Assembly: GCA_015064355.1 (NCBI GenBank)
Contig: SVSJ01000007.1
Location: 7,435 to 71,434, forward strand
Origin: Oscillospiraceae bacterium
Lineage (GTDB): Bacteria; Bacillota; Clostridia; Oscillospirales; CAG-272
DNA: 64,000 nucleotides
Reading direction: 5' to 3'
Shown: in pieces, positions 5,369 to 48,269 of the stretch
Numbering within the stretch: position 1 is the first letter of the stretch
Layout: each line of letters starts with the position of its first letter
Notes under the pieces: model-generated
The model's database searches: none
What the model was told of the DNA's origin: nothing
The model's input: only the letters and a program-made list of their open reading frames with translations
Program-made: the position numbers and the translations under genes

Positions 5369-5412
5369 ACAAAAAACGGTAGATCTCTCTACCGTTTATT
5401 TTTTGTCTTATT

Positions 5413-7170
5413 TTACACAGTTGCGTTTCTTATAACGTATTTATCTGCGAACTCCTTGTATTTTTCCTTGTAATATTCACTGTCGGACTTCATTACGCGG
5501 AGAGATTCATGGAGATTGAGATTGTGTTCGGCTGCATCAATTACACCGCCTGCGATATTGGAGCAGTGGTCAGATGTGCGTTCAAGGCTTGTAATGATGT
5601 CATTCCAAACGAAGCCTGTTTCTATGCTGCATTCGCTCTTCTGGAGACGGATGATATGGCTTGTACGGAGAACATCCTTCAGTTTGTCGATAACCTGCTC
5701 GAGAGGTTCAACGGCAGATGCAACCTGTGTGTCCTCATTAATAAATGCATCAAGTGTGAGATCAAGAATCTCTCTTACAGCAAGGCAAAGGACGTCGATC
5801 TCGTGAGATGCCGCGGGAGATAGTGTGAGGCTCTTGTCCTTCATTTCCTCAGCAGACTCAACAATGTTTACAGCATGGTCGGAAATACGCTCAAAGTCAC
5901 CGATTATCTTAAGGAGCTTGGTAGATTCTGTACTGTCGTGCTCGCTGATCTGGTGTGTGCTGAGCTTAACAAGATATGTGCCTATAACGTCCTCGAAGTG
6001 GTCAGTCTTGTCTTCGGCCTCACGAACTGATGCTGCAACTTCCTCTGAATACTGCTTGAGACAAAGGAGGCTGTCCTTCATTGCACCGATTGCAACCTTT
6101 GCCATATCCTGTGCTACGATGTTGCAGCGTTCAAGAGCAACGGAGGGGGTAACAAGGAGACGCTCGTCAAGTTCGACTTTCTTTTCGGGAGCCTTTCCTT
6201 CGGGCACGAGCTTATATGCGAGCTTTTCAAGGAGACCGGACATAGGCAGGAGAAGGAGAGTACAAAGTATGTTAAATATGGTGTGAGCAGTTGCTATTCC
6301 ACCCATTGTAGCTGCCTGTCCAAACAGAGCCGGCGAGAGAATTGCGTCCACTGTCCAGAATGCTGCAAGCCATACTGCCGTGCCGATCACGTTGAATGAG
6401 AGGTGAACAATTGCGGCTCTCTTTGCATTCTTATTTGTACCGAAGGATGAGAGGATCGCCGTGATACAAGTACCGATATTCTGACCCATAATGATCGGGA
6501 TAGCCGCACCGTATGATACAGCACCGGTCTTTGCAAGAGCCTGAAGAATACCAACGGAAGCAGAGCTGGACTGGAGCAATGCAGTAAGAAGTGCACCAAC
6601 AATTACGCCGAACAGGGGATTTTCAAACATAACAAATAACTGTTGGAATGCGGGGATATCCTTAAGTCCAGACACAGCATTTGTCATTATGTCCATACCA
6701 AACATAAGAGTTGCAAATCCGAGAAGGATTGTTCCCGTGTCCTTCTTTTTCGTTGACTTGCAGAACATATAGAACACTATACCAATAAGCGCAAGGACCG
6801 GAGTGAAGGACATAGGCTTCAGCAATTTCAGGAAAATGCTATCTCCGCTTACTCCGCCCAGAGAAAGGATCCACGCAGTAACAGTTGTACCTACGTTTGC
6901 TCCCATGATAACATTAATTGCTTGGCGCAGAGTCATAAGGCTCGAGTTTACAAAGCCTACGACCATAACCGTAGTTGCTGATGAGCTTTGTATGATCGCG
7001 GTTACACCAAAACCTGTAATGAAGCCCATAAATCTATTTGTAGTGAGCTTGCCGAGAAGTGACTGGAGACTGCTTCCCGCCCGTCTTTCAAGTGCCTGAC
7101 CCATGATGTTCATGCCAAAGAGGAACAAACAAAGGCCGCCGATTAGTGTGAGTGCGTCAAAAATTGTCAT
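5413..7170 (-). CDS. Na/Pi-cotransporter family protein with a PhoU-like C-terminal domain
   Basis: Duplicated QSSSA(T/S) motifs lie in a polytopic N-terminal half (AIIQSSSATTVM, LLQSSSASVGIL). The soluble helical C-terminal half carries repeated ERISDH / ERTSDH PhoU-type motifs. Confidence 0.85.
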   Translation of the reverse strand: MTIFDALTLIGGLCLFLFGMNIMGQALERRAGSSLQSLLGKLTTNRFMGFITGFGVTAIIQSSSATTVMVVGFVNSSLMTLRQAINVIMGANVGTTVTAWILSLGGVSGDSIFLKLLKPMSFTPVLALIGIVFYMFCKSTKKKDTGTILLGFATLMFGMDIMTNAVSGLKDIPAFQQLFVMFENPLFGVIVGALLTALLQSSSASVGILQALAKTGAVSYGAAIPIIMGQNIGTCITAILSSFGTNKNAKRAAIVHLSFNVIGTAVWLAAFWTVDAILSPALFGQAATMGGIATAHTIFNILCTLLLLPMSGLLEKLAYKLVPEGKAPEKKVELDERLLVTPSVALERCNIVAQDMAKVAIGAMKDSLLCLKQYSEEVAASVREAEDKTDHFEDVIGTYLVKLSTHQISEHDSTESTKLLKIIGDFERISDHAVNIVESAEEMKDKSLTLSPAASHEIDVLCLAVREILDLTLDAFINEDTQVASAVEPLEQVIDKLKDVLRTSHIIRLQKSECSIETGFVWNDIITSLERTSDHCSNIAGGVIDAAEHNLNLHESLRVMKSDSEYYKEKYKEFADKYVIRNATV

Positions 7171-7393
7171 GTTTTTTACCTTTCTTGATTTTTCTTTTTT
7201 CTTTCTTCTTTATTTCTACTCTACAAACTTCCGAGGGCTTTGGAAAATTATTCCCAACCTCCCTCATTTTACATTATACTAACAAAAACCCGCAAATTGG
7301 TTAACAAAAACACCAAATTTTGTTAAAATAAAATTAACAATAAGACTACAAATATTATAATCTTAAATATTTGATTAAAAAGGCTCAATTCCC

Positions 7394-7422
7394 TTGACAA
7401 AACTGATGATATATATTATAAT
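7394..7422 (+). promoter_or_regulatory. Sigma-A promoter upstream of the CNNM/CorC gene
   Basis: TTGACA (7394-7399), exact 17-nt spacer, TATAAT (7417-7422). This leaves a leader of about 190 nt. Confidence 0.6.
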
Positions 7423-7618
7423 AGTAAATTGAACGCATATAAACACACGTTGAAGATGTGCGGCGCAGAGCTTTTGTTCTGTGAAAAACAAAGTGCTCTT
7501 CCCTGCAGCATTTCCCTGCCTGTTACACTAAAAGTTTCAGCCAAATCTGCCGCCGGAAGTCACTGCCTATAAAACGGCTTGGTGTGTCTTCAATACATAG
7601 AAAGAGGTAAATTTTACT

Positions 7619-8974
7619 TTGGATCCTGATTCTGCAGCGATATTGTTACTTGTACAGGTAATTCTCATTGCGCTTAACGCTGTTTTTGCAAGCGCAGAGA
7701 TCGCTATTCTCTCGGTTAATGAAACCAAACTGGCTAAGCTGGCTTCGGAAGGCAACAAGCGTGCTAAACGACTGCTCAAGCTTACTGAACAGCCCGCAAG
7801 ATTCCTGGCTACCATTCAGGTTGCTATTACTCTTGCAGGATTTCTCGGAAGTGCCTTTGCCGCCGACCATTTTTCTGAGCCCATCGTTGATTGGCTTGTT
7901 GGCCTTGGCGTAAAGATTCCCGAAGCAACTCTCGACACGATCGCAGTTATTTTCATCACGCTGGTTCTCTCCTACTTTACCCTTGTTTTCGGTGAGTTGG
8001 TACCCAAGCGTGTTGCAATGAAAAAAACCGAAAAGTTGGCCCTTGCGCTGTCCGGACTTATCTGCTTTATGTCCTCTCTCTTTAAGCCCGTGGTATGGTT
8101 CCTTACCATTTCCAACAATGCTGTCCTTCGACTTATGGGCATCGACCCCAACGAAGCGGACGAGCAGGCAAGTGAAGAAGAGATCATTCTGATGGTTGAC
8201 GCAAGTGCTGAAAGCGGCACCATAGACCACGAAGAAAAAGAACTTATCCAGAACGTATTTGAGTTTGACGACTTAACAGCAGGCGAAATCGCTACACACC
8301 GTACTGACGTTGATCTACTTTGGCTTGAAGAGTCAATGGAAGAATGGGCTGAGACCATTCACAAGTCACGTCACACTCTGTACCCTGTTTGCGAGGATTC
8401 TGCCGACAACGTAATCGGTATTCTCAACGCCAAGGATTATTTCCGACTTGACGATAAGAACCGCGAAAACGTTATGACAGAGGCTGTCAGACCCGCATAT
8501 TTCGTTCCTGAAAACATAAAAGCCGATGTTCTCTTCAGAAATATGAAGAAGAGCGGTAACACCCTCGCTGTTGTTCTTGACGAATACGGCGGAATGGTTG
8601 GTATCGTAACAACTAACGACCTTGTTGAATGTATCGTTGGTGACCTTGGCGAAGATGAAGCCGATAACACAGGCGATGAACCCAAGATGAAGAAAACCGG
8701 CGAGGACACTTGGTCGATAACCGGAAACATCGAGCTTGACGACATCGAAAAAGAGATCGGAATCGAGCTTGAGCGCGGCGAATTCGACACCTTCACAGGT
8801 CTTGTGTTCGGCACACTGGGCATTATTCCCGACGACGGTGACCAGGACATTAATCTGGACACAACTCATCTTAAGATCCACGTAAGCAAGGTTGAGGATC
8901 ATCAAATCTCCGAAGCTTCCATTCAAGTTATCATTCCCGAAGAGGAAGAAAACGAGGAAGAGGACGACAAATAA
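7619..8974 (+). CDS. CNNM (DUF21)-CBS-CorC_HlyC 'hemolysin family' protein, a putative Mg2+/Co2+ efflux type
   Basis: Four N-terminal TM helices with SAEIAILSVN, a CBS pair, a C-terminal CorC/HlyC transporter-associated domain and an acidic tail. The start codon is TTG. Confidence 0.85.
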   Translation: MDPDSAAILLLVQVILIALNAVFASAEIAILSVNETKLAKLASEGNKRAKRLLKLTEQPARFLATIQVAITLAGFLGSAFAADHFSEPIVDWLVGLGVKIPEATLDTIAVIFITLVLSYFTLVFGELVPKRVAMKKTEKLALALSGLICFMSSLFKPVVWFLTISNNAVLRLMGIDPNEADEQASEEEIILMVDASAESGTIDHEEKELIQNVFEFDDLTAGEIATHRTDVDLLWLEESMEEWAETIHKSRHTLYPVCEDSADNVIGILNAKDYFRLDDKNRENVMTEAVRPAYFVPENIKADVLFRNMKKSGNTLAVVLDEYGGMVGIVTTNDLVECIVGDLGEDEADNTGDEPKMKKTGEDTWSITGNIELDDIEKEIGIELERGEFDTFTGLVFGTLGIIPDDGDQDINLDTTHLKIHVSKVEDHQISEASIQVIIPEEEENEEEDDK

Positions 8975-18909: not shown

Positions 18910-19395
18910 ATGCCCCAGGACAAGCAAAGCAAAAAGATAATAGCAGTCAACCGCAAGGCGCGTCACGACTATTTTGTTGAGGACACCTATGAGGCGGGGA
19001 TCGAGCTTTTTGGCACAGAGGTCAAGAGCCTGCGTCTGGGTCAGGTCAACCTGAAGGACTCCTTCTGCCGGGTTATTGACGGTGAGCTTTTTGCCATCGG
19101 TGTGCATATCTCACCTTACGAAAAGGGCAATATCTTCAACCGTGATCCCATGCGTCACAAAAAGCTTTTGATGCACAAGAGGGAGATTTTGAAGCTGCAG
19201 CAGTACATCACCCGCGACAGCTACACTCTCGTGCCCCTTTCCCTTTATTTTTCCGGCTCCAACGTAAAGATGGAGGTTGGCCTCTGCAAGGGTAAAAAGC
19301 TGTGGGACAAGAGAGAATCCGATGCCAAGGCTCAGGCAGGTCGCGAGATCGAGCGAGTAACAAAATCAAGAAGCCACAGGGATTATGAGGATTAA
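18910..19395 (+). CDS. smpB: SsrA-binding protein SmpB
   Basis: IAVNRKARHDYFVEDTYEAGIELFGTEVKSLR and the rest align with the SmpB family. The gene sits immediately upstream of tmRNA. Confidence 0.95.
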   Translation: MPQDKQSKKIIAVNRKARHDYFVEDTYEAGIELFGTEVKSLRLGQVNLKDSFCRVIDGELFAIGVHISPYEKGNIFNRDPMRHKKLLMHKREILKLQQYITRDSYTLVPLSLYFSGSNVKMEVGLCKGKKLWDKRESDAKAQAGREIERVTKSRSHRDYED

Positions 19396-19498: not shown

Positions 19499-19879
19499 GG
19501 GGACGTAAAGGTTTCGACGGGGATTTTGAAGTGCGATAAGCGGGTAGAGTTTGGGGAAACTCTTAAATAAGCCCTAACTTAAAATTAAACGCTAACGATA
19601 ATTTAGCTTACGCTGCCTAAGTGCAGCTGTCCGTTCGGAGATTGCCACGACTCCGAATTGTCCCTCTAATCGGGAGTGAGCCCCTATTTGGCCACGGCAT
19701 CATCGTAGTGGCGTCCGTGAACGGTAAGTTTGCTTTTGTAACCGTCACGCATTAAAAAGCTACCTGAGCGAGTTGCCTGTCCGCCGGCGGCTCGTCAGGG
19801 AATCTTCATAGACGGACTGCACCCGGAGAAAGTTGCGTGGATAGGTTTTCGGACGCGAGTTCGACTCTCGCCGTCTCCA
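19499..19879 (+). ncRNA. ssrA: tmRNA (SsrA)
   Basis: 5' GGGGACGTAAAGGTTTCGACGGGG. The 3' tRNA-like end is GGACGCGAGTTCGACTCTCGCCGTCTCCA, and its acceptor arm is complementary to the 5' end. CCA is not encoded. The tag ORF GCT AAC GAT AAT TTA GCT TAC GCT GCC TAA (19591-19620) encodes ANDNLAYAA. Confidence 0.9.
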
Positions 19880-19987
19880 TAATTTGCGCCAACAAGTTGG
19901 CTAAATAAGAGATAAAAGATAATAGATAAGATTTTTCTATTGTTCATTATCTCTTGTTTTTGTTTACAGCAAACACGAGGTAACATT

Positions 19988-27016: not shown

Positions 27017-27041
27017 AATTTAGTATTTGGCAAGCAAAAAT

Positions 27042-27340
27042 AGCTCGTGAATCAAGGCCATACCAGCCGGGGGAGCAGCGGGTCCCTGTACTCGAAGTCC
27101 GCTACAGCGAGGGTGGAATCCCGATTTGAGGGCGTTTATTGCGTAGTCTGTACCATACGGAATGTGTTGACAAATGGGTCTTGCGCGATTAGCGGCTGTG
27201 AACCATGTCAGGTGGGGAACCAAGCAGCATTAAGCAGTTTAGCTGATGCGCCGCAGGGTAGCCTGTTTCGAGCAGGAAACTATGGTGTCGTGCGTAATGA
27301 CCGTTCGATCTTTGGGTGTATGGTCTTGATTTGCGAGCTA
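27042..27340 (+). ncRNA. ffs: Signal recognition particle RNA, long Bacillus/Clostridium type with an Alu domain
   Basis: Domain IV signature GTCAGGTGGGGAACCAAGCAGC at 27207-27228. The 5' end AGCTCGTGAATCAAGG pairs with the 3' end TCTTGATTTGCGAGCT and is followed by TTTTTT. The gene order ffs-dnaX-ybaB-recR is classical. The ends are approximate. Confidence 0.8.
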
Positions 27341-27414
27341 TTTTTTACGCCATATCATTTCGGAACATCGTAGGCAACGCCCCCTACGGAAATAGGAACA
27401 GGAGGAAGCGCAAT

Positions 27415-30080: not shown

Positions 30081-30118
30081 TCTCCCCACGTCAGAGAACA
30101 CGGGGAGATTTTTGTTTT
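30081..30118 (+). terminator. Rho-independent terminator after recR
   Basis: Stem TCTCCCC/GGGGAGA followed by TTTTTGTTTT. Confidence 0.6.
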
Positions 30119-30122
30119 GCTG

Positions 30123-30151
30123 TAGACTTGGGGCTGAATTTGTGGTATAAT
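30123..30151 (+). promoter_or_regulatory. Extended -10 promoter for the small-ORF / GTPase-NYN operon
   Basis: TAGACT (30123-30128), 17-nt spacer whose 3' end carries the extended -10 TGg (30143-30145), then TATAAT (30146-30151). Confidence 0.5.
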
Positions 30152-30183
30152 ATTTTATTATATCAAATCAGGAGGACAGCGAT

Positions 30184-30573
30184 ATGAGTCTGAACGTCAA
30201 TTCCCCAGCATACTACTCTAATGTTCATGGAATCGATAACGATATTTACCGATTACAGCAGTTGATCACGAAGAACATAGACGTACGGAATTATACTGAC
30301 GTGATCGATGCAATCGGAATTGTTCCGGTGATAGCTCCGGAGCACATTATGGGCGAAATGAAGAAATTTCATATAAAGGCTCGTTTTGCAAGTATTTGGC
30401 TCCGAATTGATTACGAAAAGTATTTGACTTCAGACTTGGAAGAAAAAAAGCAGCTGATATTACAAAACATATTTGATTCGCTCTACGTTGTGAGAAAACG
30501 TTTGGGACGTAAATTCGACTATGAGCGAATAGTAAACGATATTAAGAAGTTAGTAAACGAAGGAACGATATGA
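30184..30573 (+). CDS. Hypothetical 129-aa protein with no recognised motif
   Basis: Good RBS (AGGAGG 30170-30175). The stop overlaps the next start (ATGA at 30570). My hand count over 360 nt gives about 39% G+C, against about 53% in a sampled 60-nt stretch of the neighbouring gene. Confidence 0.6.
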   Translation: MSLNVNSPAYYSNVHGIDNDIYRLQQLITKNIDVRNYTDVIDAIGIVPVIAPEHIMGEMKKFHIKARFASIWLRIDYEKYLTSDLEEKKQLILQNIFDSLYVVRKRLGRKFDYERIVNDIKKLVNEGTI

Positions 30574-33161
30574 AAAATCTGGTAATCGGGATCCTCGCTC
30601 ACGTTGACGCGGGCAAGACTACTTTGTCTGAAGCCCTACTTTACACCACCGGAAAAATAAAAAAAGCCGGACGTGTGGATCATCGCAATACTTATCTTGA
30701 TACACACGAGCTTGAACGTGACCGTGGGATAACAATTTTCTCCAAGCAGGCGATCTTTGAAACGCCGAACATAAAGGTCACTCTGCTGGACACTCCCGGT
30801 CACGTGGATTTTTCAGCGGAGGCGGAGCGCACCCTATCCGTACTTGATTACGCTATCCTTGTGATCAGCGGTTCTGAGGGCGTGCAGGCTCACACGGAGA
30901 CATTATGGAATCTCCTGGAACGTTACAATGTTCCGACTTTTATTTTCATCACGAAAATGGACTCCTCCTCTTTTGACCGTGAGTTTTTGATGAGGGATCT
31001 TTATTCTCACATTTCCTCGTCATGCGTTGATTTCAGCACAGAAGAGAATCTCCCCGAGCGGATCGCAATGGTTGACGAGGAGCTTCTCGACAGATACATG
31101 GAGTCGGGTGTGGTAAATGACGAGGACGTCGCCCGCCTTACAGCAGAGCGCAAGCTGTTTCCCTGCTTCTTCGGCAGCGGGCTGAAAATGGACGGCATTG
31201 ATTCCCTTATCAGGGCCCTCGAAAAATACACAACCGCAAAAGAATACCCCGATGAATTCGCAGCCCGTGTTTACAAGATCGGTCACGATACCACAGGGGG
31301 CAGAATCACTTATCTGAAGATCACAGGGGGAAAGCTGACGCAGCGGCAGACCCTCAAATACACATCTGCGGAATCCGATGAACCTATTGAAGAAAAGATC
31401 ACCGGAATCAGGCTGTACTCCGGAGCAAAATTCGACACTGCCGATTCTTGTGCTGCCGGTCAGGTTTGCGCCGTAACAGGGCTATCTGCCACCTACGCAG
31501 GTCAAGGCCTCGGTGCTGAAACAGGCACATCACAGCCATATCTCGAGCCGGTTCTCAATTATCGGATCGTACTACCGGCCGGGGCCGATCCCCGTGTGCT
31601 GATGCCAAAGTTCAAGCTGCTGGAGGAAGAAGAGCCTCTGCTCCACATCGTATGGAATGAGCGCTTTGGCGAGATTCACGCACAGCTTATGGGGCAGGTA
31701 CAGTGCGAAATACTGGTGAGCCTAATAAAAGACCGTCTTGGAATTGACGTAGCCTTTGGTGACGGACGGATAATGTACAAGGAAACTGTTTCAGCCGCAG
31801 GTGAAGGGGTAGGACATTTCGAGCCGCTCCGCCACTACTCGGAGGTTCATCTGCTTATCGAGCCAATCCCCGCAGGTTCCGGCGTGGTATTCGATACGGT
31901 AGCTGACGAGAACCATTTTGAGCGAAACTGGCAGCGACTTGTTATGTTCTTCCTTGAGAATAAGCAGCACCTGGGCACTCTCACCGGCTCTCCTCTCACC
32001 GATGCCAAGATCACCCTTACAAGCGGCCGTGCACATCTCAAGCACACCGTCGGAGGCGACTTCCGCGAGGCAACCTACCGTGCGGTACGTCAAGGCCTGA
32101 TGATGCTGAAACAGCGTGGCAAGTGCGTTCTTCTTGAGCCTTATTACGCCTTCACCCTTGAAGTTCCGGGAGAATGTGTTGGTCGCGCTATTTCGGATAT
32201 TATAGCACGTCACGGCACATATGACGAACACGAGTCTACGCCGGGCATCTCGCTTTTGAAGGGACGCGCTCCTGTTGCCACAATATCAGATTACGCAAAG
32301 GACGTTGCCTCTTACACCCACGGCAGAGGCAGATTCTCGTGTCGTGTCGACGGTTATTCCCAATGCCACAATGCCGATGAGGTGATCGCGTCCTTCGCAT
32401 ACGAGCCGGAGGCGGACCTTGACAACACCCCGGACTCCGTATTCTGCTCCCACGGCGCGGGATTTGTTGTTCCTTGGTGGCAGGTGCCGGAATACATGCA
32501 CCTTGAAGCCTTGGACATCCACGAAAACTATGATCCTACGTTAATTCCACCGGCGCCGGAGGTTATTCGCCAAAACATCAATATTGACGAAAAAGAGCTT
32601 GAAGCAATTATGGAGCGTGAATTTGGTCCGATCAAGCGGAGAGTTTACGGAAAGCCAAAAGAGCAGGCGCATCTCCCTGACGTTAAAGCTCCAAAATATA
32701 AGAAATCCCTTTACGTCATCGACGGATACAACGTGCTCTTTGCCAGAGATGAGCTTGAGGCGGTTGCACAGGTTGATCTTGAGACAGCGCGACGGGATCT
32801 TTGCGATATTCTTGCCAACTACCACGGATTCACCAAGCGTGATATTGTCGTGGTGTTTGACGCATACAACGTTAAGGGCGCTGTGGAAAGAAAGTTCGAC
32901 TACAACGGCGTAAACGTGGTATACACCAAGGAAGACGAGCTTGGCGACACGTATATCGAAAAGTTCGTTGACAAGATCGGCCGGGACTACAACGTGCGTG
33001 TTGTTACCTCCGACGGACTTATACAGCTTCAGGCGTTCCGCACGGGCGTACTTCGTATGTCAGCTCGGGAATTCTGGGCAGAGATCACCGCTGTGGACGA
33101 CGAGATAAACGAAATACTGAAAGAACTGAAGAGAAATCCCAAAAGACCGCAGAAGCCGTAA
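30570..33161 (+). CDS. Tet(M)/EF-G-like translational GTPase fused to a C-terminal YacP/Rae1-type NYN ribonuclease domain
   Basis: GTPase motifs G1 AHVDAGKT, G2 RGITI, G3 DTPGH and G4 TKMD. The protein is colinear with ribosomal-protection proteins through about aa 640. From aa ~711 (nt ~32700) it carries LYVIDGYN, VVVFDAYN, GDTYIEKF and VRVVTSDGLIQLQ...RMSAREF, the NYN_YacP signature. Confidence 0.8.
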   Translation: MKNLVIGILAHVDAGKTTLSEALLYTTGKIKKAGRVDHRNTYLDTHELERDRGITIFSKQAIFETPNIKVTLLDTPGHVDFSAEAERTLSVLDYAILVISGSEGVQAHTETLWNLLERYNVPTFIFITKMDSSSFDREFLMRDLYSHISSSCVDFSTEENLPERIAMVDEELLDRYMESGVVNDEDVARLTAERKLFPCFFGSGLKMDGIDSLIRALEKYTTAKEYPDEFAARVYKIGHDTTGGRITYLKITGGKLTQRQTLKYTSAESDEPIEEKITGIRLYSGAKFDTADSCAAGQVCAVTGLSATYAGQGLGAETGTSQPYLEPVLNYRIVLPAGADPRVLMPKFKLLEEEEPLLHIVWNERFGEIHAQLMGQVQCEILVSLIKDRLGIDVAFGDGRIMYKETVSAAGEGVGHFEPLRHYSEVHLLIEPIPAGSGVVFDTVADENHFERNWQRLVMFFLENKQHLGTLTGSPLTDAKITLTSGRAHLKHTVGGDFREATYRAVRQGLMMLKQRGKCVLLEPYYAFTLEVPGECVGRAISDIIARHGTYDEHESTPGISLLKGRAPVATISDYAKDVASYTHGRGRFSCRVDGYSQCHNADEVIASFAYEPEADLDNTPDSVFCSHGAGFVVPWWQVPEYMHLEALDIHENYDPTLIPPAPEVIRQNINIDEKELEAIMEREFGPIKRRVYGKPKEQAHLPDVKAPKYKKSLYVIDGYNVLFARDELEAVAQVDLETARRDLCDILANYHGFTKRDIVVVFDAYNVKGAVERKFDYNGVNVVYTKEDELGDTYIEKFVDKIGRDYNVRVVTSDGLIQLQAFRTGVLRMSAREFWAEITAVDDEINEILKELKRNPKRPQKP

Positions 33162-35301: not shown

Positions 35302-36666
35302 ATGAAAAAGTTCTTGACCCTCGCACTCCTCTTGATTTCCGTAGCCATCCTTGCGGTCAGCGTAAATGCAGCAGTCGGCACCGTGGTTTACGGCTACAAA
35401 ACCGACACCGCTCCCAACCTCGAAGAGATCGACGAATCCTGGGGCGAGCCGTGTATCTACGTGGACAAAAATTCCCCTAACACCGAGCTACACAAGTACT
35501 GGACGGAGGAAATTGACACCTGCTACTACACAACTCCGGGAACCGGCGCAGCGGGCAGGACCACTATTCAACCCGAGCCAAGTGACTTCTGGATGTATGT
35601 TCTCTATGATCGCAAGAATTTGTATATCGGCATCAAATCTCCCGATACAGAGCCATCAGGCGGTCCCGAAGCGCACCGTGGTGATGGTGCACGCATCTGG
35701 CTTCAACCTCTTGATTCAATGGTCGATCCTTATTCAGGGTACGGCGTTGGTGAGCTTACGGAATATGAGCCAGAATATCAGCTCCTTGAGACCTACTACC
35801 ACTACTACTGGAACATGTCGAAAGATATGAGTGAGGTTGACAGGCTTTATGCATCAAAAAATGTTGATATTGCAAATATATCATTTAAAGACGGATATAT
35901 GCACGCGATCATTGAGATTCCTCTGTCATTCTACGGTTTAGCCAAGGAAAAGAATCTCAACGGTTTCGAGTTCGGTACTGCAATTATGCGTTGCAGTTCC
36001 AGGAGTCCTTCTGACGAGGGTTACGCAGGCTGGCTGTCCTGGGGTGCCACCTTACCGGAATACACTCCCCTGCCCACCAGTGTTAATACCATTATTTTGG
36101 TAGACCCCGATGCAGAGCTTCCTGCAGATCAGACCACGCCTATTGAAACCGAAGCTCCTGTAACCGAAGCTCCTGCGACCGAAGCTCCTGTAACCGAAGC
36201 TCCTGCGACCGAAGCTCCTGCAACCGAAGCTCCTGCTACTGAGACTCCTGCGACCGAGACTCCTGCGACCGAGACTCCTGCGACCGAAACTCTTGCAACC
36301 GAGACTCCTGCGACTGAGGCTCCTGCGACCGAGGCTCCTGCGACCGAGACTCCTGCGACTGAGACTCCTGAAACCGAAGCTCCTGTGACTGAAGCTCCTG
36401 CGACCGAAGCTCCTGCAACCGAGGCTCCTGCAACCGAAACTCCTGCGACCGAGACTCCTGAAACCGAGACTCCTGAAACCGAGACTCCTGCGACCGAAGC
36501 TCCTGTGACTGAAGCTCCTGCGACCGAGACTCCTGCAACCGAAGCTCCTGTAGCGAGCAACACCGCAAATAAGCCTAATACAGCTCTCAACGTTGGTATA
36601 ATCGTTGCGGTTATAGTAGTGGGACTTGGCATTGTGGCACTTATTAAGAACAAGAAAAAGAAATAA
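35302..36666 (+). CDS. Surface protein: signal peptide, CBM9/DOMON-like N-terminal domain, 27x TE(A/T)P(A/V/E) stalk, C-terminal TM anchor
   Basis: Signal peptide MKKFLTLALLLISVAILAVSVNA, a pentapeptide repeat array, and a C-terminal segment LNVGIIVAVIVVGLGIVALIKNKKKK. Confidence 0.75.
   Translation: MKKFLTLALLLISVAILAVSVNAAVGTVVYGYKTDTAPNLEEIDESWGEPCIYVDKNSPNTELHKYWTEEIDTCYYTTPGTGAAGRTTIQPEPSDFWMYVLYDRKNLYIGIKSPDTEPSGGPEAHRGDGARIWLQPLDSMVDPYSGYGVGELTEYEPEYQLLETYYHYYWNMSKDMSEVDRLYASKNVDIANISFKDGYMHAIIEIPLSFYGLAKEKNLNGFEFGTAIMRCSSRSPSDEGYAGWLSWGATLPEYTPLPTSVNTIILVDPDAELPADQTTPIETEAPVTEAPATEAPVTEAPATEAPATEAPATETPATETPATETPATETLATETPATEAPATEAPATETPATETPETEAPVTEAPATEAPATEAPATETPATETPETETPETETPATEAPVTEAPATETPATEAPVASNTANKPNTALNVGIIVAVIVVGLGIVALIKNKKKK
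36148..36552 (+). repeat. 27 tandem copies of a 15-bp unit (ACC GAR RCT CCT GNR)
   Basis: Counted directly in the sequence. Units differ only at a few wobble or second positions and are in frame within the CDS. Confidence 0.95.
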
Positions 36667-45248: not shown

Positions 45249-45281
45249 TATTATGAAGTAATGTAAACTTTGGAGAATGAT

Positions 45282-48269
45282 ATGAAAACTCGTTTGTCGC
45301 GGAAATTCTGGTGTGCTCTGATAATATTCGGACTTATGGGACAGATTGCCTGGGTTGTGGAGAATATGTACCTCAACGTGTTCATATACAAGATGTTCTC
45401 GGCGTCTGCAGGCGACATTTCAGCCATGGTTGCGGCAAGTGCTGTTGCTGCTACAGTTACGACTGTTCTCATCGGTGCACTGTCTGACAGAATAGGAAAG
45501 CGTAAGATTTTCATTTGTGGCGGATATATTTTGTGGGGCGTTTCAATTTTCGCATTTGCCCTTCTTCGCACAGATGTGGTCGGAGCAATGTTCCCTGCTG
45601 CAGTATCCGCATCTGCTGTTTGCGTTACACTCACCATAGTTCTCGACTGTCTCATGACATTCTTCGGTTCAAGCGCAAACGATGCTGCGTTCAACGCCTG
45701 GCTCACCGACAGCACCGACAATTCCAATCGCGGTGCGGCCGAAGGTATCAACGCAATGATGCCGCTGGTTGCAATTCTCGCCGTGTTTGGCGGATTTATG
45801 GGCTTCGACCTTAACGAAAGTAGCTCCTGGGTGACAATTTTCACCATCATCGGTGTATGCACTCTTGCTGTGGGTGTGATCGGATTTTTCGTTATTGAAG
45901 ACAAAGCAGCTGCCCCCTCGGAAACGGGATATTTCAAAAACGTGATCTATGGTTTCCGCCCGAAGACCGTTTCCGAAAACAAAGAGTTTTACTTCTTCCT
46001 GCTTCTGTTTATCATTTTTAATATCGCCATTCAGATATTCATGCCCTACCTCATTATTTACTACGAAGTATCTCTCGGTATGGCAAACTACGTTTTCGTA
46101 ATGGCACCCGCTATTATTTTGGCCTCTGTAGTCACCGCTTTCTGGGGCAGATTCTATGACAAAAAAGGCTTTGGCAAATCGGCCTTCTGGGCTCTTCTTT
46201 GGCTCGCTGTGGGATTTATTGTTCTGTTCCTTTTCCGCCAGACTGTCCCTGTGTTCGTGGGTTCTCTCCTTATGATGTGCGGATACCTGTCCGGTATGGC
46301 AGTATTTGGTGCAAAGATCCGCGATCTGACACCCGCAGGTAAAGCAGGTATGTTACAGGGAGTCCGTATCTTCTCACAAGTTCTCATTCCCGGTGTGGTT
46401 GGACCGTTTATCGGCAAAACCGTACTGAAGAATGCCGAGGTTATCATCAACAACGACGGCACAGAATCCTTTGTGCCAAGCGCGGATATTTTCTCCGCAG
46501 CTCTTGTTCCCGTTATTATTCTGGCTGTGCTTCTCATTATCCGACACGTGACAAAAAAGCCTCGAACCTGCACTCTTATGACTGACTTTGCAGGTGATAC
46601 AGACTGGACTGAATATCCACGTCCGCAGCTGAAGCGCGATTCCTACGTTTCACTCTGCGGCGAATGGGAGCTTTCCGTCAAGAAAAAAGGTGATGAAAAA
46701 GCAGTTGGCAAGATAAATGTACCCTATCCCCCCGAATCTGCTCTTTCCGGAATCGAGCGAACACTTAAAGAAGGCGAACGCTGGATATATCGTAAGAATT
46801 TCACCTTGGCAGATGGATTTAACAAAGGGAAAATCCTTCTTCACTTCGGCGCGGTGGATCAGATTGCAATTGTTACAGTAAACGGCACACTACTTTCTGC
46901 ACATGAGGGTGGTTATCTCCCATTTACCCTTGATATAACCGAGCAGATCACAAATGGCGAAAATGAAATCCAGGTTGAGGTTTTCGATAACCTCTACCGC
47001 GAACTTGCATACGGCAAACAGCGCCGTAACAGAGGCGGTATGTGGTACACCCCCACAAGCGGTATCTGGCAGGCTGTTTGGCTCGAATCAGTCCCCGAGG
47101 ATTACATTTCATCCCTACGTCTCACGCCCACTATTGACAGCATTACCATTGACACAGTCGGCGGATGCGCAGAAAAAACTGTGGTTATAAAGACTCCCGC
47201 AGGTGAAATTGAAAAGACCTATACAGGCAATCAAATAACAATAGAAATACCCTCTCCCGTCAACTGGACTCCCGAAAATCCTTACTTATATGAATTTACT
47301 CTCACATCGGGGGAAGACAAGATCGAATCCTACTTTGCCCTCCGCACAGTGGGAATTGAGACAGCAGACGGTCAGGCTTACATAGCACTCAACAGCAAGC
47401 CCTACTTCTTCCACGGACTCCTTGACCAGGGATACTATAGCGACGGTATTTACACCCCCGCCTCCCCTGTCGGCTTCATTTATGACATAACAAAAATGAA
47501 GGAATGCGGATTCAACACCCTGCGTAAGCATATTAAGATAGAGCCTGACTTGTTCTATTATTACTGCGACCGTCTAGGCATGATCGTGCTTCAGGATATG
47601 GTCAACTCGGGCAAGTACAGCTTCCTTGTTGACACAGCCCTTCCTACCGTTGGTATAAAAAAAGGAATCACCCACTCCGCATCCCCTTATCGCCGGGAAA
47701 GCTTTGAAGCTGACTCCCGCGCTACCGTGGATCTTCTTTACAACCATCCCTCCGTTTGCTACTACACCATATTCAACGAGGGCTGGGGACAATACGATGC
47801 CGACAGGATCTACGGTGAGCTGAAAGCTTACGATCCCACGAGGACCTGGGACGCAACATCCGGATGGTTCAACGAAAAGGAAAGCGACGTCACAAGCGAG
47901 CACGTGTATTTCAAAAAGCTCGATCTTAAGCCGCGTTCAGACAGACCCCTTGTTCTGTCCGAGTTTGGCGGGTACTCCTGCAAGATAGCAGACCACTCAT
48001 TCAACCTCGACAAAACCTATGGGTACAAGTTCTTCACAGAGCAGCCGGAATTCGAGAAAGCCCTCTACGCCCTCTATCGCGATGAGGTGATCCCAATGAT
48101 CGACCGTGGTCTTTGCGCATCTATCCTCACCCAAGTCAGCGACGTTGAGGACGAAACAAACGGACTTCTCACCTATGACAGAGCCATTCTGAAGGTTGAC
48201 ACCGCCAAAATGGCGACGGTTTCAGGTGAAGTAATAAACGCATTCAATAAAAAAACTAATACAAAATAA
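45282..48269 (+). CDS. Fusion protein: MFS/GPH-like 12-TM transporter (aa ~1-430) plus a glycoside hydrolase family 2 domain (aa ~440-995)
   Basis: I count 12 hydrophobic segments in the N-terminal part. The C-terminal part carries GH2 features: YPRPQLKRDSYVSLCGEWEL (sugar-binding domain), the acid/base motif NHPSVCYYTIFNEGWGQ and the nucleophile motif LVLSEFGGY. It is a single uninterrupted ORF. ATG at 45282 with GGAG upstream. Confidence 0.8.
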   Translation: MKTRLSRKFWCALIIFGLMGQIAWVVENMYLNVFIYKMFSASAGDISAMVAASAVAATVTTVLIGALSDRIGKRKIFICGGYILWGVSIFAFALLRTDVVGAMFPAAVSASAVCVTLTIVLDCLMTFFGSSANDAAFNAWLTDSTDNSNRGAAEGINAMMPLVAILAVFGGFMGFDLNESSSWVTIFTIIGVCTLAVGVIGFFVIEDKAAAPSETGYFKNVIYGFRPKTVSENKEFYFFLLLFIIFNIAIQIFMPYLIIYYEVSLGMANYVFVMAPAIILASVVTAFWGRFYDKKGFGKSAFWALLWLAVGFIVLFLFRQTVPVFVGSLLMMCGYLSGMAVFGAKIRDLTPAGKAGMLQGVRIFSQVLIPGVVGPFIGKTVLKNAEVIINNDGTESFVPSADIFSAALVPVIILAVLLIIRHVTKKPRTCTLMTDFAGDTDWTEYPRPQLKRDSYVSLCGEWELSVKKKGDEKAVGKINVPYPPESALSGIERTLKEGERWIYRKNFTLADGFNKGKILLHFGAVDQIAIVTVNGTLLSAHEGGYLPFTLDITEQITNGENEIQVEVFDNLYRELAYGKQRRNRGGMWYTPTSGIWQAVWLESVPEDYISSLRLTPTIDSITIDTVGGCAEKTVVIKTPAGEIEKTYTGNQITIEIPSPVNWTPENPYLYEFTLTSGEDKIESYFALRTVGIETADGQAYIALNSKPYFFHGLLDQGYYSDGIYTPASPVGFIYDITKMKECGFNTLRKHIKIEPDLFYYYCDRLGMIVLQDMVNSGKYSFLVDTALPTVGIKKGITHSASPYRRESFEADSRATVDLLYNHPSVCYYTIFNEGWGQYDADRIYGELKAYDPTRTWDATSGWFNEKESDVTSEHVYFKKLDLKPRSDRPLVLSEFGGYSCKIADHSFNLDKTYGYKFFTEQPEFEKALYALYRDEVIPMIDRGLCASILTQVSDVEDETNGLLTYDRAILKVDTAKMATVSGEVINAFNKKTNTK

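Follow-up and report, generated by a model that had tools for sequence, protein, structure and literature searches.

The closest experimentally studied relative of the nuclease described here is Rae1 (YacP) of Bacillus subtilis, the sole member of the NYN_YacP family to have been examined in the laboratory. [quoted passage not shown] Its cut is now reported to lie outside the A site, some 12 nt upstream, and the authors of the Rae1 work have withdrawn the premise of an A-site RNase. Because the binding of Rae1 to the ribosome is transient (PMC13622287), a structure of the ribosome-bound enzyme is lacking.

Nucleases of this type are also found joined to translational GTPases, and the fusion architecture is already known. 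It has been published as "Tet proteins with a YacP-like NYN domain" (Atkinson 2015, BMC Genomics, Additional file 8) and as "TetM-NYN_YacP fusion proteins" (Matelska et al. 2017, NAR), both of which noted the fusion without functional testing, and our literature search found no functional study of either the fusion or the unfused members of its subfamily. A reading of the present locus made from sequence alone had stated that no characterized example was known; this holds for function, but the architecture itself has been in print since 2015 and 2017.

Architecture of the fused gene

Within the window, the whole 64-kb stretch of DNA that was analyzed, one unbroken frame encodes an 863-aa protein that combines an EF-G/Tet-like GTPase with a predicted YacP/Rae1-type nuclease. 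The gene and its upstream region comprise the following features.

30081..30118, plus strand: terminator-like hairpin plus T-run after recR, stem 30081-30108 (sequence conserved in loci L004 and L005)
30123..30151, plus strand: promoter-like site TAGACT-17-TATAAT with extended -10 TG (consensus match only)
30184..30573, plus strand: Imm44-like ORF, 129 aa, its stop overlapping the fusion start as ATGA (Pfam Imm44 at 28.7 bits; gathering score 25)
30570..33161, plus strand: whole fused gene, 863 aa plus stop
30570..31244, plus strand: G domain, aa 1-225, with G1-G4, catalytic His78 and a short, Tet-like G' insert (Pfam, Tet(O) alignment)
31245..31763, plus strand: domains II and III, aa 226-398 (Pfam, predicted structure)
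31764..32114, plus strand: domain IV, aa 399-515 (conservation, alignment)
32115..32357, plus strand: domain V, aa 516-596 (Pfam EFG_C at 520-601)
32358..32507, plus strand: C-terminal GTPase module, aa 597-646, family-specific, with conserved Cys and His (conservation in 79 sequences)
32508..32705, plus strand: tether, aa 647-712, a conserved helix between two unconserved spacers (pLDDT, conservation)
32706..33134, plus strand: predicted YacP/Rae1-type NYN endoribonuclease domain, aa 713-855 (Pfam, PDB alignment)

The in-frame fusion proposed by the sequence-only reading is confirmed by the uninterrupted ORF and by Pfam matches in both halves: GTP_EFTU at residues 4-221 (E 3e-50), EF-G_D2 at 230-312, EFG_III at 326-397, EFG_IV at 400-511, EFG_C at 520-601, and NYN_YacP (PF05991) at 716-856, the last with 141 bits against a gathering score of 24.6 (E 5e-41). 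The full predicted model of the protein matches ribosome-bound EF-G structures. All of the motifs listed in that reading were recovered, both in the GTPase (AHVDAGKT at 10-17, RGITI at 52-56, DTPGH at 74-78, TKMD at 128-131) and in the nuclease (LYVIDGYN, VVVFDAYN, GDTYIEKF, VVTSDGLIQLQ and RMSAREF), and the colinearity it described with Tet proteins extends as one stretch over residues 1-597 of the alignment with Tet(O).

Conservation was assessed in 79 representatives that are 37-53% identical to the window protein. D13, G15, K16, T55, D74-G77, K129 and D131 are present in all 79 sequences and H78 in 78; G4 reads TKMD here versus the canonical NKxD, and Asn is the majority residue in the family (68 of 79). 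Alignment of the NYN domain to B. subtilis YacP/Rae1 (PDB 5MQ8/5MQ9; E 1e-18) pairs Rae1 D7, D53, D81 and D104 (5MQ8 numbering, counted from the alignment) with D718, D764, D793 and D815 of the fusion. These four aspartates, correctly read as intact in the earlier account, are kept in 79 of 79 sequences. Both catalytic centers look intact, and both are under purifying selection.

Domain IV is the most conserved domain of the protein, with a conservation of 0.66 (G domain, 0.58; NYN domain, 0.61). Its tip loops, GVGHFEPLRHY (413-423) and GRAHLKHTVGGDFR (486-499), are family-specific and conserved at 0.83-0.85. In Tet proteins the domain IV tip loops have a role in contacting and dislodging tetracycline (Atkinson 2015 and references therein). 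The Tet(O) loop III sequence YYSPVS aligns with AHLKHT in the fusion, where HxKHT is family-invariant.

The two halves are joined by a segment that had been taken for a linker of about 70 aa. It does connect them, but it is more than a linker: a conserved module of about 50 aa (597-646) comes first, and then a tether of about 65 aa with a conserved helix in it. The module follows the pattern CHN...DSVFCSHGAG..VPW..V..YMH, with S623, F625 and G629 in all 79 sequences and C599 (70), C626 (73), H628 (62), W636 (75) and H644 (75) in most of them. It has no match in Pfam at E<=0.1 or among PDB sequences at E<=10. Its pLDDT is 80-91 in the full model and 31-48 when the C-terminal third is modeled alone (overall pLDDT 61). 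In the tether, the helix ELEAIMEREFGP at about 676-687 lies between spacers with conservation of 0.15-0.21, and residues 684-709 are predicted to be disordered (pLDDT <50). The distance from H644 to D718 in the 79 sequences runs from 64 aa, the shortest, to 196 aa, with a median of 84. Matches of 200-240 aa in the representative search were considered as natural split or stand-alone forms; most start at an internal Met643 ("YMH") and resemble truncated or miscalled fragments.

Distribution, gene context and unfused relatives

The fusion is old and widespread. A survey of the domain architecture, which the sequence-only reading had recommended, returned 253 clusters at 50% identity (E<=1e-30) and at least 584 matching stretches in species-representative genomes. 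It is common both among gut Clostridia that are themselves abundant, such as Faecalibacterium, Ruminococcus, Blautia and Agathobacter, and among tractable species such as C. thermocellum, C. cellulolyticum and D. hafniense. At 73 of 80 species-representative loci the fused ORF is intact and at least 780 aa long; six of the others run past the contig end, and the seventh (L021) starts no more than 66 nt from one.

The gene is single copy at each locus and sits in ordinary chromosomal contexts. Among the 80 loci we found no conserved neighbor and no rRNA-processing gene beside the fusion. A second NYN domain is absent from the window and from the 10 kb on either side of the fusion at the 80 loci, but this search lacks statistical power, as only about 0.6 chance sightings would be expected. 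Apparent carriage on mobile elements did not hold up: the PLSDB matches are large chromosome-like records; a "Bacteriophage sp." record (MT835563.1) carries ProRS, shows no phage hallmark in 10 ORFs scanned with Pfam, and looks bacterial; and the IMG/VR matches are genes truncated where predicted viral regions end.

Upstream, the terminator-like hairpin separates a dnaX-ybaB-recR unit from the fusion gene. The sequence TGTGGTATAAT is conserved at the same place in L004 and L005, directly ahead of the fusion gene, and in these close relatives the promoter-like site at 30123..30151 is the fusion gene's own candidate promoter. The Imm44-like ORF has a GC content of 38% versus 52%, is absent from L004 and L005, and gave no tblastn match across the other loci compared. 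It is a window-specific, low-GC insertion of about 400 bp in the 5' leader of the fusion gene and no conserved partner of that gene. Rfam yields just tmRNA and SRP RNA in the window, with no leader RNA ahead of the fusion gene. Both smpB and tmRNA are encoded within the window.

The GTPase also occurs without the nuclease. In Bifidobacterium, a protein annotated as [quoted passage not shown] (for example P0282, CP071591.1) is 48% identical to the fusion over the GTPase and module (698 bits), and the alignment stops exactly at fusion residue 646. In the unfused proteins the module is the C-terminal end. The two groups have identical domain IV tip motifs and an identical module, whereas the Bifidobacterium protein, from a different phylum, has neither tether nor NYN domain, and its domains III and IV/V contain low-complexity inserts. 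The nuclease-free form is a core Bifidobacterium protein. This sister family shows the GTPase to be a functional unit by itself.

We define the subfamily by two domain IV loops, GHFEPLRHY and G(R/K)AHxKHTxGGDFR, together with CHN...DSVFCxHGAG...W...MH after domain V; the window protein has both the HxKHT tip and the C-terminal module. Judged by these signatures, the GTPase plus module is a distinct Tet/EF-G-like subfamily with invariant domain IV tip loops, fused in its Clostridial branch and standing alone in Bifidobacterium. The fusion points to an uncharacterized subfamily of translational GTPases with fused and unfused forms.

Proposed function and alternatives

The sequence-only reading suggested an RNase targeted to the ribosome under GTPase control, and quality control or decay of stalled messages is the most plausible form of that idea. 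The most likely reading, to which we give about an even chance, is that the fusion is a chromosomal, housekeeping-type translation factor of gut Clostridia that engages ribosomes when they stall and cleaves the message, leaving them to rescue by tmRNA. In its GTP form, the GTPase half would dock in the factor-binding site of a stalled or collided ribosome, where domain IV would probe the A site or decoding center. Docking would keep the tethered nuclease at high local concentration near the mRNA and outside the A site. It would probably act on the mRNA entry side or on the part of the message that lies between two collided ribosomes. The NYN domain would then cut the message at the docked ribosome, GTP hydrolysis would release the factor, and the ribosome on the truncated message would become a substrate for tmRNA-SmpB. 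In effect, the protein may be a Rae1 that no longer depends on transient ribosome binding, its access being hard-wired to a GTPase sensor.

Delivery of the nuclease to the A site, as first suggested, does not survive. Its premise is outdated now that the Rae1 cut has been relocated, and ribosome structures of TetM, TetO and EF-G suggest a further obstacle: because domain IV of EF-G/Tet-type factors fills the A site, the nuclease tethered to the same molecule can hardly share that site with it.

More tentatively, the fusion could represent the first case in bacteria of a nuclease being delivered by a translational GTPase: the Tet-like half would sense stalled or collided ribosomes in a GTP-gated manner, and the NYN domain would cut outside the A site, committing the ribosome to rescue by tmRNA. 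The unfused Bifidobacterium relatives would then be unrecognized rescue or surveillance GTPases, possibly acting with a separate nuclease.

An improbable alternative is a factor for rRNA or tRNA processing or for ribosome decommissioning, which would dock on immature or damaged ribosomes and use its NYN domain to cut rRNA instead of mRNA. EF-G-family GTPases such as Ria1/EFL1, LepA and BipA act in ribosome assembly, and the conservation of the domain IV tip fits rRNA recognition equally well. An rRNA RNase activity was proposed for Tet-NYN proteins by Atkinson (2015). An older argument from gene neighborhoods also assigns NYN_YacP to rRNA/tRNA processing, as about 300 Firmicutes genomes have a stand-alone NYN_YacP gene grouped with mrnC and rlmB (PMC5499597). 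However, the Rae1 precedent is of translation-dependent mRNA cleavage (PMC12407103, PMC13622287), and the 80 fusion loci lack rRNA-processing neighbors.

We consider it unlikely that the protein is an antibiotic-response or ribosomal protection factor, which would either displace tetracycline or a different drug from the A site, the RNase providing a second mode of action, or specifically rescue drug-stalled ribosomes. Many records of the family are named as TetM/TetW/TetO/TetS family members, a novel resistance mechanism was suggested by Atkinson (2015), and B. subtilis Rae1 has been connected with chloramphenicol and erythromycin responses. The tet_protect model (NF012153) is the top-scoring NCBIfam model for the fusion protein, but at 399.9 bits against a cut-off of 775, and four further family members score 359-405 bits. 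Thus, by NCBI's test the fusion protein is not a tetracycline resistance protein. The "ribosomal protection protein" label applied to it from sequence overstates its membership, as the Tet loop motif is also absent, replaced by the invariant HxKHT. Nor is it elongation factor G by the corresponding model (TIGR00484, 254 bits against a cut-off of 659), and the EF-G alignment is interrupted at G', which is about 55 residues shorter in the fusion. The gene is chromosomal and vertically distributed, not plasmid- or phage-borne, and the unfused form belongs to the core of Bifidobacterium. Tetracycline resistance in Bifidobacterium is attributed to tet(W). Thousands of genome records label members of this subfamily as tetracycline resistance proteins, which leads to inflated resistome counts in gut metagenomes.

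Very unlikely is a translation-targeting toxin or abortive-infection effector, an option from the earlier account that finds no support; in this reading, the Imm44-like protein encoded upstream would neutralize it. Toxins often contain NYN/PIN nuclease domains, and the Imm44-like ORF marginally passes its gathering score and overlaps the fusion start codon. Yet that ORF is specific to the window, the 80 loci show no conserved partner of the kind expected of a toxin-immunity, toxin-antitoxin or anti-phage system, PADLOC returned nothing beyond a weak, generic GTPase match to LeoA (19 bits), the supposed phage record looks bacterial, and many gut Clostridia carry the fusion intact as one chromosomal copy. 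Finally, we found nothing in favor of an assembly or frameshift error having merged two adjacent genes, a negligible prospect already refuted by full-length, PF05991-containing fusions in each of the best 120 homologues, by fusions in isolate genomes published in 2015, by the intact species representatives, and by sequence conservation across the junction (module, helix and NYN start).

Relation to known systems

The published fusions from R. albus, E. rectale, E. eligens, B. proteoclasticus, C. cellulolyticum, C. thermocellum, C. phytofermentans, C. lentocellum and D. hafniense carry GHFEPLRHY, GRAHxKHTEGGDFR and CHN...SVFCxHGAG blocks and, in the nuclease, VDGYN, VFDAY, ETAD and ATSD. The window protein resembles them in architecture, length and motifs, and is another member with no difference in kind.

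With Tet(M) and Tet(O) (3J9Y, 4V6V), the fusion shares the EF-G-like five-domain layout, G1-G4 and the short G' insert, and is colinear through residue 597. It scores half of the family cut-off, differs in the loop III motif and the C-terminal extension, is encoded by a chromosomal rather than a mobile gene, and adds a module and a nuclease.

With B. subtilis Rae1, it shares the NYN_YacP fold (34% identity over 140 residues), the four aligned acidic residues and the long C-terminal helix. Rae1 is a single domain of about 170 aa, encoded in an mrnC-rlmB-rae1-sigH locus, that binds the ribosome transiently, whereas the NYN domain of the 863-aa fusion is tethered to a 646-aa GTPase and encoded in unrelated contexts, with recR and a GFO_IDH_MocA oxidoreductase as neighbors here and variable genes elsewhere. 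B. subtilis Rae1 works without such a GTPase, and coupling to one is thus not required for Rae1 function generally. A survey of Rae1 that applied an HMM without a size filter counted the fusions as Rae1 (PMC13622287). If fusion-bearing genomes also retain a stand-alone rae1, the fusion would be a specialized paralogue and not the Rae1 of its lineage.

This natural fusion of Rae1 with an EF-G/Tet-like GTPase provides evolutionary evidence that Rae1-type nucleases act from the factor-binding side of the ribosome. Such a protein could be trapped for cryo-EM with a non-hydrolyzable GTP analogue or a His78 mutant, and could help to show how bacteria cut messages on stalled ribosomes.

A further comparison is with SmrB of E. 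coli and with Cue2/NONU-1 of eukaryotes, mRNA endonucleases that sense ribosome collisions. These nucleases are recruited through the disome interface or ubiquitin, with no translational GTPase, and their folds are unrelated to that of the fusion (SMR versus NYN); the likeness is one of functional analogy only. What the fusion would share with them is the proposed logic, in which stalled or collided ribosomes attract an endonuclease and its cut in the mRNA leads on to ribosome rescue.

Domains and conservation of the fusion protein

The window encodes, as the sequence-only reading had proposed, a Tet/EF-G-like GTPase joined in one ORF to a YacP/Rae1-type NYN nuclease domain, and Pfam recognizes both halves.

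Window 30570..33161, + strand: fusion gene, a single uninterrupted 863-aa ORF
Residues 4-221: GTP_EFTU (Pfam, E 3e-50)
EF-G domain 2, EFG_III, EFG_IV and EFG_C (Pfam), with EFG_C at residues 520-601
Residues 716-856: NYN_YacP (Pfam, 141 bits against a gathering score of 24.6)

All of the motifs quoted in that reading were found at their positions, and its proposed Tet-type colinearity is borne out by Tet(O), which aligns with residues 1-597 as one unbroken stretch. EF-G scores the same as Tet(O), with an alignment that is split because its G' insert is longer. An AlphaFold2 model of the fusion (mean pLDDT 81) is matched by ribosome-bound EF-G structures over ~690 columns. The sequence of the B. 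subtilis YacP/Rae1 crystal structures (5MQ8/5MQ9) aligns to the NYN part with 34% identity (E 1e-18), so that D7, D53, D81 and D104 of Rae1 correspond to D718, D764, D793 and D815.

The fusion architecture is not a discovery, as it is already in the literature. Atkinson (2015) described Tet proteins with a YacP-like NYN domain, with fusion sequences in Additional file 8 from R. albus, E. eligens, E. rectale, B. proteoclasticus, C. cellulolyticum, C. lentocellum, C. phytofermentans, C. thermocellum, and D. hafniense. In Matelska et al. (2017) such proteins appear as "TetM-NYN_YacP fusion proteins," with a role that the authors termed unclear. Our full-text literature searches found no functional study. 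The earlier remark that no characterized example was known still holds, although the architecture was published in 2015 and 2017. To this the present analysis adds that the GTPase forms a separate subfamily, with domain IV tips and a C-terminal module of its own and an unfused sister group in Bifidobacterium; it also adds a minimum tether length, the absence of any conserved partner, and the failed tests of membership among the ribosomal protection proteins.

Judged from an alignment of 79 representatives of the family, with only 37-53% identity to the window protein, purifying selection acts on both predicted activities. In the GTPase, D13, G15, K16, T55, D74-G77, K129, and D131 are present in all 79, and the catalytic His78 in 78. 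The NYN residues D718, Y720, N721, D764, Y766, T786, D793, and D815 are likewise present in 79/79, in keeping with the earlier statement that the acidic residues appear intact. Domain IV is the best-conserved domain (0.66, against 0.58 for the G domain and 0.61 for the NYN domain), and its tip loops, GVGHFEPLRHY and GRAHLKHT-GGDFR, score highest of all (0.83-0.85).

The segment between the two halves, previously taken for a linker of ~70 aa, is not a plain linker: it comprises a conserved module, unconserved spacers, and a conserved helix (ELEAIMEREFGP). The module (residues 597-646, ~50 aa) carries the motif CHN...DSVFCxHGAG..VPW..V..YMH, in which Cys and His residues are conserved, and Pfam and PDB sequence searches gave no match to it. 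It probably packs against the GTPase body, because it is modeled confidently only in the full-length protein (pLDDT 80-91, versus 31-48 without the GTPase body). The tether from H644 to D718 spans 64-196 residues in the 79 representatives (median 84, minimum 64), and residues 684-709 are predicted to be disordered. In many family members, the chain also runs on past the NYN domain for ~15-30 residues, in a conserved "NYLF..L......E.IRLGK"-like tail that the window protein does not have.

Proposed action at the ribosome

EF-G/Tet-type factors bind the factor-binding site of the ribosome in their GTP form and place domain IV in the 30S A site. The GTPase half of the fusion may sense one particular state of the ribosome and anchor the protein there, and the key step, to judge from the extreme conservation of the domain IV tips, would be to read the decoding center. 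Because domain IV would itself fill the A site, the nuclease of the same molecule could hardly be there at the same time; the obligatorily long, flexible tether suggests instead that it acts tens of ångströms away. The cut might then fall on entry-side mRNA, or in the stretch that separates two collided ribosomes, with release of the factor timed by GTP hydrolysis, and tmRNA-SmpB would handle the cut message. Trans-translation, which Rae1 feeds in B. subtilis, is encoded in this organism, since smpB and the tmRNA gene lie ~11 kb upstream of the fusion.

Window 18910-19395: smpB
Window 19499-19882: tmRNA gene, tag peptide ANDNLAYAA

Recent work on Rae1 makes the fusion timely. Cleavage of mRNA by Rae1 is translation-dependent (PMC12407103, PMC13622287), and after collisions the enzyme makes substrates for trans-translation while associating only transiently with the ribosome (PMC13622287). 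The cut made by Rae1 is now reportedly placed ~12 nt upstream of the A site. This, together with the expected occupancy of the A site by domain IV, makes the earlier premise of an A-site RNase outdated, whereas the idea that the GTPase takes the nuclease to the ribosome survives as the best reading. We infer every step of this sensor-anchor and tethered-nuclease mechanism, and we give the whole an even chance of being correct.

A role in rRNA or tRNA processing, or in ribosome decommissioning, is a distinctly less probable alternative. A drug-response or protection factor is less probable again. The name [quoted passage not shown] is frequent in databases for these proteins, but fused and unfused members score 359-405 bits against the NCBIfam model tet_protect (NF012153), for which the NCBI cut-off is 775, and the name is thus unjustified by NCBI's own threshold.

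Genomic context and distribution

Around the fusion, genes follow the order eno, (SRP RNA), dnaX, ybaB, recR, the fusion, and a GFO_IDH_MocA oxidoreductase, both in the window and in its closest relatives. The SRP RNA ahead of dnaX-ybaB-recR is an arrangement shared with B. subtilis; ORFs called at 27020-27373 overlie this RNA region and are spurious. A terminator-like hairpin follows recR, and then a conserved extended -10 promoter-like site, which in the relatives directly precedes the fusion gene.

Window 27058-27323: SRP RNA, large bacterial type, directly upstream of dnaX-ybaB-recR
Window 30184-30573: Imm44-like ORF, 129 aa, with a marginal Pfam match to Imm44 (polymorphic-toxin immunity) and a strong AGGAGG ribosome-binding site

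The Imm44-like ORF lies in a segment of ~400 bp (roughly 30165-30555; GC 38% versus 52% in the flanking genes) inserted between the promoter-like site of the fusion and its ribosome-binding site; the ORF's stop codon and the fusion's start codon overlap (ATGA). The possibility, raised earlier, of a toxin or abortive-infection effector, here with this ORF as its immunity protein, is very unlikely: the ORF is missing from L004 and L005, the loci of the closest relatives, none of the loci compared contains a relative of it, and clustering of the neighbors of 80 loci yielded no conserved partner (best cluster 15/80, at scattered positions). Gene context is quite different in more distant carriers. 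No second NYN domain occurs in the 64-kb window or in the 10 kb on either side of the fusion in the 80 loci; with only ~0.6 chance sightings expected there, this negative has no power to tell a replacement of stand-alone rae1 from a specialized paralog. PADLOC gave only a weak generic GTPase match.

Two other window genes drew attention. A 999-aa ORF at 45270-48269 has an MFS transporter domain at residues 33-379 and glycoside hydrolase family 2 domains at 504-865; it is either an unusual fusion of transporter and glycosidase or a merge caused by a frameshift or by assembly. The 454-aa protein at 35302-36666, which has an N-terminal signal-like segment, a long series of E(T/A)PAT-type repeats, and a membrane anchor at its C terminus, resembles a cell-surface protein, and its repeats give rise to long ORFs on the opposite strand that are spurious.

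The fusion is common across genomes. The best 120 database relatives (848-894 aa, 62-100% identity) all carry PF05991. A search with residues 600-863 against 1.84 billion 50%-identity representatives returned 253 clusters at E<=1e-30, which consist almost entirely of full-length fusions and of fragments with a linker match as well, and a scan of one genome per species found no fewer than 584 matching stretches. The 80 best are from Oscillospiraceae, Lachnospiraceae, Ruminococcus, Faecalibacterium, Blautia, Butyrivibrio, Intestinimonas, Flavonifractor, Eubacterium xylanophilum, and others. In 73 of them the ORF is intact and at least 780 aa long (median 878); of the remaining seven, six are cut off by a contig end, and L021 begins at most 66 nt from one. 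With 120 full-length relatives and 73 intact loci, an assembly artefact deserves practically no weight.

A Clostridial-type fusion on a 6.7-kb contig labeled Alloprevotella sp. (L072, CAVEPP010000094.1), in a Bacteroidota bin, is probably bin contamination and not a fusion outside Firmicutes. In plasmid and phage collections, the fusion occurs only in chromosome-like or misfiled bacterial records. One "UNVERIFIED: Bacteriophage sp." record (L088, GenBank MT835563.1) has a full-length fusion at 5397-8024 and a prolyl-tRNA synthetase, with no phage hallmark by Pfam among the ten ORFs scanned, and is most likely a misfiled contig of bacterial origin.

An unfused sister group and comparison with Tet proteins

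Some loci in a scan of viral contigs match the module only. The ORFs there, of 726 and 754 aa, share the domain IV loops and the module of the fusion and end a few residues past the module. In Bifidobacterium, the unfused family is core, with proteins of 675-850 aa that lack PF05991, and one cluster has 7,079 member sequences.

L090 1-2265, L092 1-2181, L096 10001-12205 and L097 10001-12406: unfused Bifidobacterium sister genes, with domain IV tips and module, without tether or NYN domain

The neighborhoods of the unfused loci contain no NYN gene. These very abundant proteins are often annotated as tetracycline resistance proteins. In B. pullorum, the unfused gene adjoins a type II CRISPR-Cas9 locus, probably by coincidence.

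By sequence comparison, the GTPase half belongs to a subfamily of its own, members of which also occur without the nuclease. P0282, an unfused GTPase from a complete Bifidobacterium genome (CP071591.1), aligns with the window protein over the whole GTPase and module (48% identity, 698 bits, versus ~238 bits for Tet(O)), and the alignment stops exactly at residue 646. The Bifidobacterium GTPase shares the domain IV tip motifs and the module with the fusion but lacks the tether and NYN domain. Membership among the ribosomal protection proteins, as first suggested, fails on domain IV as it does on the tet_protect score: where Tet(O) has the loop "YYSPVS," the fusion family has its own HxKHT.
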